A stretch of DNA of 35,338 nt from Acidimicrobiia bacterium (GTDB taxonomy: Bacteria; Actinomycetota; Acidimicrobiia; Spongiisociales; SHLN01). The stretch's first letter is position 1, and each line of letters opens with the position of its first letter. Both the position numbers and the translations under genes were made by a program. The notes under the pieces were generated by a model, which searched no databases, had not been told where the DNA came from, and saw only the letters and a program-made list of their open reading frames with translations. This document shows positions 22,421 to 26,208 of the stretch, piece after piece. Where the stretch lies: contig JBPCTX010000288.1 of the NCBI GenBank assembly GCA_051011455.1, positions 1-35,338 of the forward strand. Direction: 5' to 3'.

Positions 22421-23623
<1,203 letters not shown>

Positions 23624-23662
23624 GCCGGACTTCGTCCGGCTTGGGAGTTACTTCGTAACTCC
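23624..23662 (+). terminator. Twin stem-loops directly after the icd stop (no U-tract)
   Basis: gccggac-ttc-gtccggc (23624-23640, 7 bp) and ggagttac-ttc-gtaactcc (23644-23662, 8 bp). Both apices read ACTTCGT. Confidence 0.45.
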
Positions 23663-23685
23663 AGGCCCGGCGACCGCCAGAACTC

Positions 23686-23754
23686 AATAGGCAATAGGCG
23701 GTAACGCTGTCGGCTGTCGGCTGTCGGCTGTCGGCTGTCGGCTGTCGGCCGCTG
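23686..23754. repeat. Heptanucleotide tandem arrays: (aataggc)x2, then (gctgtcg)x6 plus one degenerate unit
   Basis: Read directly: aataggc at 23686-23692 and 23693-23699. Six perfect gctgtcg units at 23706-23747, then gccgctg. Lies in the icd-mdh intergenic region. Confidence 0.95.
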
Positions 23755-23789
23755 GCTACCCTTCGATTGGCCGACTAGAGGGAGAGATA

Positions 23790-24728
23790 ATGAGCAAGGT
23801 GACGGTCGTCGGGGCCGGGAAATACGGGTCGACTACGGCCATGCGATTGGCCGAGGCGGACATTGTTGACGAGGTCGTCATGACCGACATCGTGGAGGGA
23901 CTCCCGCAGGGATTGGCTCTCGACATCAACCAGTCACGCCCGCTGCTTGGTTATCGGACGTTGATCAAAGGCTCTAACGACTATGCCGACACCGCCGGTA
24001 GCGATGTCGTGGTCATCACCGCCGGCCTGCCCCGCAAACCAGGAATGAGCCGGATGGACTTGCTCGAAGTCAACGCCAGGATCGTCAAAGATGTGACGAC
24101 TCAGATCGCCGAGCACTCACCGGAGGCGATCATCATCAACGTCACCAACCCCCTCGACCACATGACGACACTGGCCGCCGAGGTCTCCGGTTTTGCCACC
24201 GAACGGGTTATGGGCCAGGCCGGAATGCTGGACTCGGCCCGCTTCGCCCACTTCATCGCCGAGGTGACCGGCACCGACATCATGTCTGTGTCCGCCCTCA
24301 CCCTCGGCAGCCACGGCGAGACCATGGTGCCGGTTCCCTCCCAGACCAAGGTAGGAGACAAGCTGGTGACGGACATACTCGATGCCGCTGCCGTGGATGA
24401 CCTGGTAGATCGCACCCGCAAAGGGGGCGCCGAGGTCGTTGCCCTCCTCAAGACGGGCAGCGCCTACTTCGCTCCCTCGGCCGCAGCCGCCAACATGGTC
24501 GAGGCCGTTATCGGGGACACAGGTGAGATGATGCCGGTGTGCGCCTGGATGGGTGGGGAGTACGGCATTTCCGACGTCTACCTGGGCGTTCCGGCCCGAC
24601 TCGGCAAAGAAGGCATCAAGGAGATCGTCGAGCTCCCTCTCACCGACACTGAGGCCGCCGCCCTCGCCGATGCCGCCACCGCCGTCAAAGAAAAGGTCGA
24701 CGAACTCCACCAACTAGATCTGGACTGA
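23790..24728 (+). CDS. mdh: Malate dehydrogenase (LDH-like MDH family)
   Basis: 'KVTVVGAGKYGSTTA', 'VVVITAGLPRKPGMSRMDL', 'NPLD', 'GSHGETMVP'. SD GAGGGAGAG. Confidence 0.95.
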   Translation: MSKVTVVGAGKYGSTTAMRLAEADIVDEVVMTDIVEGLPQGLALDINQSRPLLGYRTLIKGSNDYADTAGSDVVVITAGLPRKPGMSRMDLLEVNARIVKDVTTQIAEHSPEAIIINVTNPLDHMTTLAAEVSGFATERVMGQAGMLDSARFAHFIAEVTGTDIMSVSALTLGSHGETMVPVPSQTKVGDKLVTDILDAAAVDDLVDRTRKGGAEVVALLKTGSAYFAPSAAAANMVEAVIGDTGEMMPVCAWMGGEYGISDVYLGVPARLGKEGIKEIVELPLTDTEAAALADAATAVKEKVDELHQLDLD

Positions 24729-24734
24729 TTGGTC

Positions 24735-24811
24735 CCACCCCTCCCGCTTGCGGGAGGGCGGCAACACTGCGTGTTGCTGAGGGGAGGGGTGGGCAACCCG
24801 CAGGGTTGCCA
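24735..24811 (+). terminator. Multi-hairpin structured element after the mdh stop, with mutually exclusive pairings
   Basis: H1 24740-24759 (8 bp, CTTG loop). H2 24762-24778 (7 bp). H3 24793-24811 (8 bp). In addition, 24735-24746 (cccacccctccc) is perfectly complementary to 24783-24794 (gggaggggtggg), which competes with H1 and H3. No U-tract. Confidence 0.4.
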
Positions 24812-24840
24812 GCGCGTTCCTGTGTTATTGATTGGTAGAG

Positions 24841-24952
24841 CAGTAGGCAGTAAGCAGTAAGCAAGAATGATTGCTGATTGCTGATTGCTTGCGGATTGCT
24901 GGTTGCTGGTAGCTGGTAGCTGGTAGCTACCGCCCACTACCCTCTACCTCAA
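24841..24952. repeat. Composite heptanucleotide array (about 16 heptads in one continuous phase)
   Basis: gcagtag gcagtaa gcagtaa gcaagaa tgattgc tgattgc tgattgc ttgcgga ttgctgg ttgctgg tagctgg tagctgg tagctac cgcccac taccctc tacctca. Lies in the mdh-SCP2 intergenic region. Confidence 0.9.
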
Positions 24953-24976
24953 ATCACCAAGAAGGAGACAGTTTCT

Positions 24977-25363
24977 ATGTCCGTCAAGTTCCTCTCCGAG
25001 GACTGGCTCGCCGCAGCCAATACCACGCTGGCCGGTGACGGCGACTATCAGGCTGCGACGGCAGCCACCGACCTGACCCTGCAATTCGTTGTGACCGACG
25101 GTCCGGACGGTGACGTCGAGTACAACGTCGCAGTGGGCGGTGGGACCACCTCGTTCGCCGGTGGAGCCGCCGATGGCGCCGATGCAACTATTCGGAACAG
25201 CCACGAGACGGCGGTGGCGATCTCTAAGGGCGATCTCAACACCCAGGCTGCCTTCATCTCCGGCAAGCTCAAGGTCGAAGGCAATCTCGCCAAGATCATG
25301 ATGAACCAGGCCGCCCTGGCCGCCCTCGCCGACGCCCTCAAGGGCCTCGATATCGAGTACTAA
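24977..25363 (+). CDS. SCP2 sterol-binding-domain protein
   Basis: 'DLNTQAAFISGKLKVEGNLAKIMM' is the typical SCP2 C-terminal signature. SD AAGGAGA. TAA stop. Confidence 0.8.
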   Translation: MSVKFLSEDWLAAANTTLAGDGDYQAATAATDLTLQFVVTDGPDGDVEYNVAVGGGTTSFAGGAADGADATIRNSHETAVAISKGDLNTQAAFISGKLKVEGNLAKIMMNQAALAALADALKGLDIEY

Positions 25364-25426
25364 TCAGCTATCAGCTATCAGCTATCAGCTATCAGCTATG
25401 ACCGATGACCGATGACCGATGACTGC
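25364..25426. repeat. Heptanucleotide arrays (tcagcta)x5 then (tgaccga)x3 plus one degenerate unit, in one phase
   Basis: Starts at the first nucleotide after the SCP2 TAA stop. It fills most of the 80-nt gap to the convergent sdhB stop (25444). Confidence 0.95.
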
Positions 25427-25443
25427 GGCGTCGAAGACTCTGC

Positions 25444-26208
25444 TCAGCTCTTCTGACCCATCAGGCGGCGGCTCTTGACTTTGCCGCGGACGTAGTCGGC
25501 GTTCATCAGCGCTATGAAATCGATGCTGATGTCCTGTGGGCAAGCGGAGGCGCACTCGGCGATGTTGGTGCACGATCCGAAGAACTCTTCCATGGTGTCG
25601 ACCATGTTCACCGTGCGAGCCCACCGCTCCGGCTGTCCCTGGGGAAGCAGATTGAGGTGAGCGATCTTGGCAGCGGTGAAGAGTTGGGCGGCTCCGTTGG
25701 GGCAGGCCGCCACGCAGGCCCCACAGCCGATGCAAGCGGCCGCGTCCATGGCAGCGTCGGCGGCATCCTTCGGCACCGGGATCATGTTGGCGTCCGGGGC
25801 ACTGCCGGTTGGCACTGTGATGAACCCGCCCGACTCGATGATTCGGTCGAAGGCGCTCCGGTCCACCACCAGGTCCCTCACTATTGGGAAGCCAGCCGCC
25901 CGCCACGGTTCAACGGTGATCACATCGCCGTCTTCGAACTTGCGCATGTGTAGCTGGCAGGTAGCGGTCGATCGCTGCGGTCCGTGAGGAATCCCATCGA
26001 TCATGAGGCTGCACGTGCCGCAAATGCCCTCGCGGCAATCGTGATCGAACTCGATCGGGACCTCGTTGGCGTCGATCAGCTTCTCGTTGACGGTGTCCAG
26101 CATCTCCAGGAACGACATGTCCGGGCTGATGTCTGGCACGTCGTAGGTGCTGAACCCGCCTGCCCGCTCGGGGCCGTCCTGACGCCACACCTTGAGCGTG
26201 ATGTTCAC
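25444..26208 (-). CDS. sdhB: Succinate dehydrogenase/fumarate reductase iron-sulfur subunit
   Basis: Cys clusters 'CREGICGTC', '[12 protein letters not shown]', '[12 protein letters not shown]'. The GTG start at 26208 overlaps the sdhA TGA (GTGA). The track ORF to 26298 is an extension inside sdhA. Confidence 0.9.

Follow-up and report, generated by a model that had tools for sequence, protein, structure and literature searches.

A gene-less pair of heptamer arms between mdh and SCP2 in an Acidimicrobiia genome and its apparent kinship with PF05635 hairpin cassettes

Introduction

Tandem repeats with a unit of seven nucleotides have reportedly been known since 1990 from the short tandemly repeated repetitive (STRR) sequences of Calothrix, and to our knowledge no origin or function has been established for heptameric repeats in bacteria. 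Here we describe a locus of this kind at positions 24840-24930 of contig C288 of an Acidimicrobiia genome (G000, the source genome), where two arrays of heptads, one of type GCAGYAR and one of type GCTGNNN, abut and fold into an imperfect hairpin. The spacer that holds the locus is 248 nt long and separates a malate/lactate dehydrogenase gene (mdh) from a gene of the SCP2 family. The source genome is metagenome-assembled (2.61 Mb in 384 contigs, 64% G+C, 81% complete), as are its nearest relatives, which are also Acidimicrobiia. Contig C288, with its full length of 35,338 nt, is referred to below as the window; G-numbers denote genomes, C-numbers contigs of the source genome (C297, C310 and others) and L-numbers individual loci.

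Heptameric repeats are over-represented in many bacteria according to Mrazek (2007), as that study is summarised in PMC4692102, and they are intergenic, variable among close relatives and occasionally inverted (PMC4692102; PMC4679880; also the Geobacter literature). The cyanobacterial STRR sequences, the GGGAATC arrays of Xanthomonas and the GGGGAYT arrays of Nostoc (Rehm et al. 2015, PMC4692102) resemble the arrays of the source genome in being period-7, intergenic, multi-copy, over-represented and variable among close relatives, and sometimes occur as inverted pairs able to form stem-loops. The 24840 locus shares with them the 7-nt tandem period, the genome-wide intergenic excess and the rapid change of unit and copy number among relatives. 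The source genome differs in its lineage (Acidimicrobiia, Actinomycetota), in having units with a GCWG core instead of G-rich quadruplex formers, in a fixed arm order and a conserved anchor, and in a link to PF05635 genes that is not described in those papers. The TAACTGA repeats of marine Beggiatoaceae (MacGregor 2015, PMC4679880), for which a post-transcriptional role was suggested, likewise form more than 100 intergenic arrays per genome and are patchily distributed in the phylogeny. However, they consist of one unit type placed just upstream of start codons, whereas the arrays of the source genome comprise dozens of unit types and favour gene 3' ends and convergent spacers. Repetitive extragenic palindromes (REP) and the bacterial interspersed mosaic elements (BIME) of enterobacteria, associated with REP-associated tyrosine transposases (RAYT), are also mosaic, hairpin-forming and multi-copy and also prefer gene 3' ends, and the mdh-SCP2 spacer is itself a mosaic of two modules. 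In contrast to REP/BIME, the elements described here are tandem heptads and not single imperfect palindromes, and no Y1/RAYT transposase was found in the source genome.

The other relevant system is built around PF05635, a family whose product is a pentameric four-helix bundle. The genes of this family are small and encode the '23S rRNA intervening-sequence protein' (S23p), known from the intervening sequences (IVSs) of 23S rRNA and related to Avd of diversity-generating retroelements (DGRs; PMC10053308). The IVS of Coxiella has a 28-bp terminal stem that is cut by RNase III, and it carries tandem heptameric repeats (GACAGAT) in strain-variable number (PMC4990558). Complementary arms around a PF05635 gene, as in the IVSs with an S23p reading frame of Coxiella burnetii and Leptospira, were also found at two loci of the source genome, on C297 and C310, and at the majority of 26 loci in relatives. 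The stem of the 24840 locus is similar in length to that of an IVS (about 24-28 bp), but it stands between protein-coding genes and not within a helix of 23S rRNA, each arm is an entire heptad array, the complementarity of the two arms is imperfect, and they enclose a loop of 6 nt in place of a PF05635 reading frame. The locus can therefore only be a gene-less derivative and not a full cassette member. On balance, we consider it to be a gene-less heptamer-armed hairpin, composed of an abutting GCAGYAR 5' arm and GCTGNNN 3' arm, that probably derives from PF05635-type cassettes. Neither STRR-like heptamer arrays nor IVS-type hairpin cassettes were found described for Actinomycetota in the literature searched, which also yielded no paper linking PF05635 to genome-wide heptamer arrays.

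Results

Complementary heptad arms around PF05635 genes

Each of the two PF05635 genes in the source genome lies between heptad arrays (Table 1). Because arrays occur in only about 14% of its spacers, the flanking of both genes on both sides is unlikely to have arisen by chance (roughly 4e-4). On C310, the left arm corresponds to the anchored right-arm type described below, read as its reverse complement.

Pairing between the two flanks of a PF05635 gene was compared with pairing between flanks of different genes, using 26 PF05635 loci with both flanks from 14 genomes. Matched flanks had a median duplex energy of -115 kcal/mol versus -86 kcal/mol for mismatched ones (Mann-Whitney P = 6e-9), and the true partner flank ranked first of 26 at 11 loci and among the top three at 17. 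This complementarity is maintained by very different arm units, such as accgccc/cggtggg, attcgca/gcgaatt, agacgga/cttccgt and gacggcg/ccgtccg. The same is seen in G000, G003 and G001 where the PF05635 gene follows a gene for an ABC-ATPase: the arm units differ per species, both arms are heptad arrays in G000 and G003, and pairing between matched flanks is good at each of the three loci. The units of the 24840 locus themselves recur in cassettes of relatives. Its left-arm unit, GCAGTAR, forms the upstream arm of a cassette in the same-genus genome G001 (L187), whose downstream arm is its complement, and its right-arm unit, GCTGATT, forms the downstream arm of a G005 cassette (L184).

PF05635 is present in 16 of 41 related genomes and was not found in G004, which belongs to the same genus as the source genome. 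The source genome carries 53 perfect heptad arrays per Mb. Perfect arrays were also found in the PF05635-positive relatives sampled, namely G003 (6 in 200 kb), G020 and G022 (11 in 200 kb each) and G025 (2 in 94 kb), and none was found in G004, G027 and G036 (200 kb each) or G037 (100 kb), where PF05635 was not found. All ten genomes with anchor-plus-array matches are PF05635-positive.

Some further features of the cassettes were recorded. The C310 copy of PF05635 is interrupted, with a split hidden Markov model match and one in-frame TGA, and it lies against a contig end that consists of (ctatcgg)12. The 5' leaders of six PF05635 loci (L167, L168, L174, L185, L187 and L192) share cAGAGGGTCTTCc, with a GATATC/TATCAC-like box about 17 nt further on; motif and box may together form a promoter internal to the cassette. 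The leader contains a TTCTG that is similar to the anchor TTCTGGC of gene-less elements.

A genome-wide family of ordered arms

At period 7, the source genome contains 138 perfect tandem arrays with three or more copies, versus 6, 9 and 0 at periods 5, 6 and 8, and Tandem Repeats Finder (TRF) delineated about 330 period-7 clusters. Non-coding DNA holds 92% of the TRF period-7 arrays with a score of at least 36 (269/292). Most units consist of a GCWG core and three variable bases. When spacers were classed by approximate gene calls of our own, arrays were present in 34% of the convergent ones, 12% of the tandem ones and 7% of the divergent ones, a bias which indicates that they go with gene 3' ends. 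Assembly is affected as well, with 36 of 768 contig ends stopping within an array.

Adjacent arrays of opposite type follow a fixed order. A CAG-type arm precedes a CTG-type arm 37 times and follows it twice, under a classification that does not depend on strand, and the left arm is GCAGYAR in 30 of these 37 pairs. The right arm opens with the anchor TTCTGGCTGA at 81 sites, so that the common layout of the family reads (GCAGTAR)n GCAGCAAC, a spacer of about 15 nt, TTCTGGCTGA and (NNGCTGA)n. Both family arms are present at 24840-24930, where spacer and anchor are missing (compare cagtaagcaagaacgtTTCTGGCTGatagctg on C374 with cagtaagcaagaaTGattgctgattgctg here) and the loop is therefore so short. 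GCAGYAR arrays and anchored arrays are patchy among 40 relatives. Recently duplicated copies, such as those on C45 at 11504 and 11610, differ by one whole unit.

The orthologous spacer in relatives

The orthologous spacer varies strongly and shows an insertion polymorphism. Among the relatives found, the nearest (L138, whose SCP2 is 91% identical) has an array-free spacer of about 60 nt, and so does G004, of the same genus as the source genome. Elsewhere the spacer is occupied by other units: (acccaag)2, a terminator hairpin and then (gggactc)4 in G003; (ccctcga)n, a hairpin and then (gacgagg)n in G002; (gcaRtaR)4-GCCAGAAC-...-(ctgctta)4 at L131; and yet others at L134 and L135. Across G002-G005 and L131-L139, either the units differ or the arrays are missing. 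A first-pass annotation of the window, made from the sequence alone, had regarded the heptads as the product of a period-7 generating or selecting mechanism and had proposed a comparison across strains as a check. In relatives, the spacer was seen to hold other units or to lack arrays altogether, so that the particular composite is neither conserved nor selected. Exact-protein look-ups of SCP2 and mdh in the assembly index retrieved no sister strains.

The hairpin

The hairpin had been drawn by hand between the gcagtaR and tgattgc arms, and the minimum-energy fold reproduced it almost unchanged, A.G mismatches (24852/24883 and 24859/24876) and GAAUGA loop included. The stem comprises 20 Watson-Crick and 4 G.U pairs, with a 4-nt bulge (24893-24896) that coincides with the register break described below. 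Folding of 24835-24900 on both strands against shuffled controls, also proposed at that stage, bore out a stable structure on the + strand (-27.2 kcal/mol, z = -4.15, with 0 of 200 dinucleotide shuffles as low). The RNA fold of the minus strand was weak (-12.1 kcal/mol, z = -1.3), and so were folds under DNA parameters (-10.7 and -6.3 kcal/mol). The hairpin was kept in both the minimum-energy and the centroid fold of the whole spacer, folded as 256 nt.

Within the family, the arms of this locus pair at 5 Watson-Crick plus 1 G.U position per 7, a score that one other locus equals and none of the 30 oriented pairs exceeds; before orienting, 6/7 pairing was reached in 5 of 37 array pairs. The z-score of the hairpin is the second among the 37 paired-array loci of the source genome. 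The terminator scan made no + strand call in 23600-25500, and the stem is followed by uugcugguugcugg with no U-run. The hairpin region gave no Rfam match at E <= 1, and the window gave no rRNA match. The strong hairpin at this locus is the favourable tail of a design with a CWG core in both arms and not a separately selected structure, and a specific role for it in an mdh-SCP2 transcript is not supported.

Another paired-array element was observed in the window at 32432-32559, with (ccagtcR)4, a 43-nt spacer and (gctggta)8. Its RNA fold has 23 inter-arm pairs and z = -4.2.

Heptad register

Tandem heptads are present as the first-pass annotation had stated, although they start at 24840, its numbering having been off by +1. 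A 7-nt head-to-tail period extends over 24840-24930 in both TRF and the lag-7 identity track, with the unit series gcagtag, gcagtaa (twice), gcaagaa, (tgattgc)3, ttgcgga, (ttgctgg)2, (tagctgg)2 and tagctac. The further claim, of about 16 heptads that keep one register through five changes of unit, is refuted by a 4-nt shift of the GCT core at 24888-24898, by an arm junction at which phase is undefined and by a last three units that are not heptads. As far as 24887, the GCT core of the right arm occupies position 5 of the register; from 24898 onwards it occupies position 2. Its successive spacings are 7, 7, 11, 7, 7, 7 and 7. The units tgattgc and ttgctgg are identical at 3/7 positions in register and at 6/7 at a rotation of 4, and TRF required 11-16% indels over the array and also called an 18-nt period. 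The register break is most simply explained by the insertion of 4 nt or by a duplication of the 18 nt at 24871-24888. At the junction from gcagtaR to tgattgc, the best direct identity is 3/7 and the arm type switches. A repeat unit can be written in any of its rotations with equal right, so that a phase between units that are not related has no meaning, and this junction is such a case. The supposed degenerate units 14-16 (24931-24951) hold instead a conserved cTACCnT promoter-like box.

Within the right arm, the unit drifts by one base per step, from ATT to GTT to GTA, and each variant is amplified in phase. The only true in-phase unit changes at the locus are gcagtag to gcagtaa and ttgctgg to tagctgg, and these are the expected product of point mutation followed by whole-unit amplification. 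Register breaks of the kind seen here occur in 22 of 70 long arrays genome-wide. The period-7 mechanism that had been deduced from kept phase thus fares unevenly: a bias to period 7 does exist at the scale of the genome, whereas the argument from phase fails on the 4-nt break among related units.

The spacer and its neighbours

The coordinates of the locus, its neighbours and the two PF05635 genes are given in Table 1.

Table 1. Features of the mdh-SCP2 region of the window and PF05635 genes of the source genome
Feature	Position	Strand	Remarks
Malate/lactate dehydrogenase gene (mdh)	23790-24728	+	
G+C-rich nested-hairpin module, dispersed copy	24729-24835	+	starts right after mdh stop codon
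Imperfect two-arm hairpin	24839-24900	+	24 pairs, -27.2 kcal/mol as RNA; minimum-energy fold
Left (5') arm, GCAGYAR type	24840-24867	+	gcagtag gcagtaa gcagtaa gcaagaa; TRF, unit alignment
Hairpin loop, 6 nt	24865-24870	+	GAAUGA; minimum-energy fold
Right (3') arm, first part	24868-24888	+	(tgattgc)3, equal to GCTGATT in the GCTG register; unit alignment
Register break, 4 nt	24891-24894	+	gcgg; GCT spacing 11 not 7; TRF periods 11, 18
Right arm, second part	24895-24930	+	attgctg gttgctg gtagctg gtagctg gtagcta c; unit alignment
TANNNT box	24938-24943	+	TACCCT; alignment of SCP2 upstream regions, 11 relatives
Shine-Dalgarno sequence	24962-24967	+	aaggag; upstream of SCP2 ATG (24977-24979)
SCP2-family gene	24977-25363	+	
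PF05635 gene (L164)	C297:5324-5880		(ggacagc cgacagc gaacagc)-gene-(ccgctgt)9
PF05635 gene (L165)	C310:1-545		(ctatcgg)12CCAGAAG-gene-(gacagct)5

Upstream of the heptad element, the nested-hairpin module ends in a stem-loop at 24792-24810 (ggcaaccc gca gggttgcc), followed by the T-rich tail gcgcgttcctgtgttattgatt. Blastn against the source genome itself found 20 further segments of this module on 13 other contigs at 84-100% identity, and copies are also present in same-genus genomes. As module and heptad arms are both dispersed repeats, the whole spacer is a mosaic of repeated modules. Parts of the module read cccctcccgcttgcgggaggg / ggcaaccctgcgggttgc / gaggggaggggtg / gagcgcgttcctgtg..., and copies occur sometimes with and sometimes without heptad arms after them. 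The motif cccac(c) stands at both borders of the mosaic (24735-24741 and 24933-24937), as compared with the array-free L138 spacer (ggcaccc|ctcactaccat), and may represent a target-site duplication or chance.

Scanning the spacer for sigma-70 promoter and terminator consensus sequences produced nothing useful. Alignment of the regions upstream of SCP2 showed T24938, A24939, C24940 and T24943 to be invariant in 11 relatives, array-free ones included. The resulting box (consensus cTACCaT), about 33 nt before the SCP2 ATG, is a probable -10 element of SCP2's own promoter, judging by this conservation. With a probable promoter of its own, SCP2 need not be co-transcribed with mdh.

Other composite arrays occur nearby, namely (caatagg)2-cggtaac-(gctgtcg)6 at 23685-23749, between icd and mdh, and (atcagct)5(atgaccg)3 at 25363-25423, which begins directly at the SCP2 stop codon. 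The SCP2 gene thus stands between near-complementary arrays, (tagctgg)n upstream (24910-24930) and (atcagct)5 downstream (25363-25399). In G002 (L085) and at L133, SCP2 is inverted relative to mdh and complementary arrays again lie on both sides, which together suggests array-mediated gene inversion.

Discussion

If the 24840 locus derives from PF05635-type cassettes, it would be a miniature copy in which the arms were kept and the gene and inner spacer were lost or never present, leaving the 6-nt loop. Its arrays would lengthen, shorten and switch unit through slippage-type events that act on whole units once point mutations have arisen; the in-phase unit changes would be by-products of this slippage, and other duplications would shift the register. 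The heptad element and the module at 24729-24835 would have been inserted between the mdh stop codon and the SCP2 promoter. The element is probably selfish or neutral and not a dedicated regulator. Should read-through transcription reach it, the 24-bp stem could, by analogy with the IVS stem, be a target of RNase III or a stem-loop protecting a 3' end.

Several results weigh against descent from such cassettes. Among the five PF05635-negative genomes sampled, four are free of arrays, but G009 (84% complete) has two perfect arrays in 37 kb and no detected PF05635; as the compared genomes are related and some are incomplete, the association of arrays with PF05635 is suggestive. Pairing of the cassette arms showed no sense-strand advantage (16/26, not significant), and this absence of strand bias speaks against selection at the RNA level on the sense strand of these arms. 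Neither a Y1 transposase (PF01797) nor a reverse transcriptase was found in the 81%-complete source genome, and the elements have no known mobility mechanism; a REP/RAYT-type element and a retroelement or DGR origin were rejected on these grounds. Nor was RNase III found in this 81%-complete genome, although 6 of 7 further genomes from the genus encode it. Moreover, adjacent gene-less arms are not more complementary than re-paired arms (4.07 vs 4.16 of 7 positions when oriented, not significant); a deficit seen at first was an artefact of mixing orientations, and neither special matching nor under-matching of adjacent arms is present genome-wide once they are oriented. RNAalifold on 27 family members recovered no conserved inter-arm helix and 0 covarying pairs, and on this result and the Rfam search a conserved structured RNA in the left-arm/core/right-arm family was rejected. 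With neither specific arm matching nor covariation, the gene-less family is not simply a collapsed perfect hairpin, and the 24840 locus lies at its favourable end. Finally, the hairpin is situated between a terminator-like module and the promoter-like box of SCP2, and it may therefore be little transcribed.

An alternative that we regard as possible, though a good deal less probable, is that plain simple-sequence-repeat dynamics suffice: slippage would favour 7 nt, arrays would arise in situ where a spacer is dispensable, and the hairpin would be incidental, as would the nearness of PF05635. The over-representation of heptameric repeats in many bacteria, ascribed to a property of the polymerase (Mrazek 2007, as summarised in PMC4692102), fits this account, as do the different units of close relatives, the duplicated C45 copies that differ by whole units, the one-base-per-step unit gradients and the lack of specific matching between gene-less arms. 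What it leaves unexplained is the 37-to-2 arm order, the anchor TTCTGGCTGA at 81 sites and in other species using other units, the specific complementarity of arms around PF05635 genes, and the absence of arrays from the same-genus genome that lacks PF05635.

Two further explanations appear improbable to us, to about the same degree. According to the view of the first-pass annotation, heptads would be kept for a locally selected RNA hairpin in the mdh-SCP2 transcript, acting as terminator, attenuator, processing site or stabiliser. Such a role would agree with the strong strand-specific fold (-27.2 vs -12.1 kcal/mol, with 4 G.U pairs), with the location of both neighbouring genes on the + strand and with the orthologous spacers of G003 and G002, where arrays surround a canonical terminator hairpin. 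Yet the hairpin is missing in the closest relative and in G004, other relatives have unrelated units, and the locus is placed between a terminator-like module on its 5' side and the -10-like box of SCP2 on its 3' side; nor is there a U-run, a + strand terminator call, an Rfam match or covariation in the family. The arrays could also be period-7 binding tracks for a multimeric nucleic-acid binder (the PF05635 pentamer, or a HutP-like or TRAP-like protein), to which the hairpin would be irrelevant. The GCWG core with three variable positions across dozens of unit types is compatible with this idea, arrays co-occur with PF05635, and the relatives of Avd are nucleic-acid-associated DGR accessory proteins (PMC10053308). 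However, the arm units of relatives (accgccc, attcgca, agacgga and others) have no common core, which makes a single sequence-specific binder unlikely, and the conserved feature is the complementarity of the arms and not the sequence of their units.

Taken alone, the 24840 locus is an ordinary copy of a notable family. The arms of this family come in ordered pairs; around PF05635 genes they show compensation at the level of whole arrays, in that units vary and complementarity stays, and arrays and PF05635 co-occur genome by genome, even inside one genus. In practical terms, heptad elements break assemblies and fill spacers that can be mistaken for regulatory RNAs. The old question of why the period is seven becomes testable, as one can ask whether the cassette or its protein generates or mobilises the arrays. 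A bolder proposal, which we put forward only tentatively and think rather doubtful at present, is that PF05635 (S23p/Avd-like) proteins act in trans to create, spread or maintain heptamer-armed hairpins, that the bacterial excess of 7-nt repeats is the footprint of one class of small hairpin cassettes, and that loci such as 24840-24930 are relics resembling miniature inverted-repeat transposable elements. If this were true, the long-noted 7-nt excess of cyanobacterial STRR sequences, Xanthomonas and Acidimicrobiia would come down to one widespread, undescribed class of cassettes and its gene-less copies.

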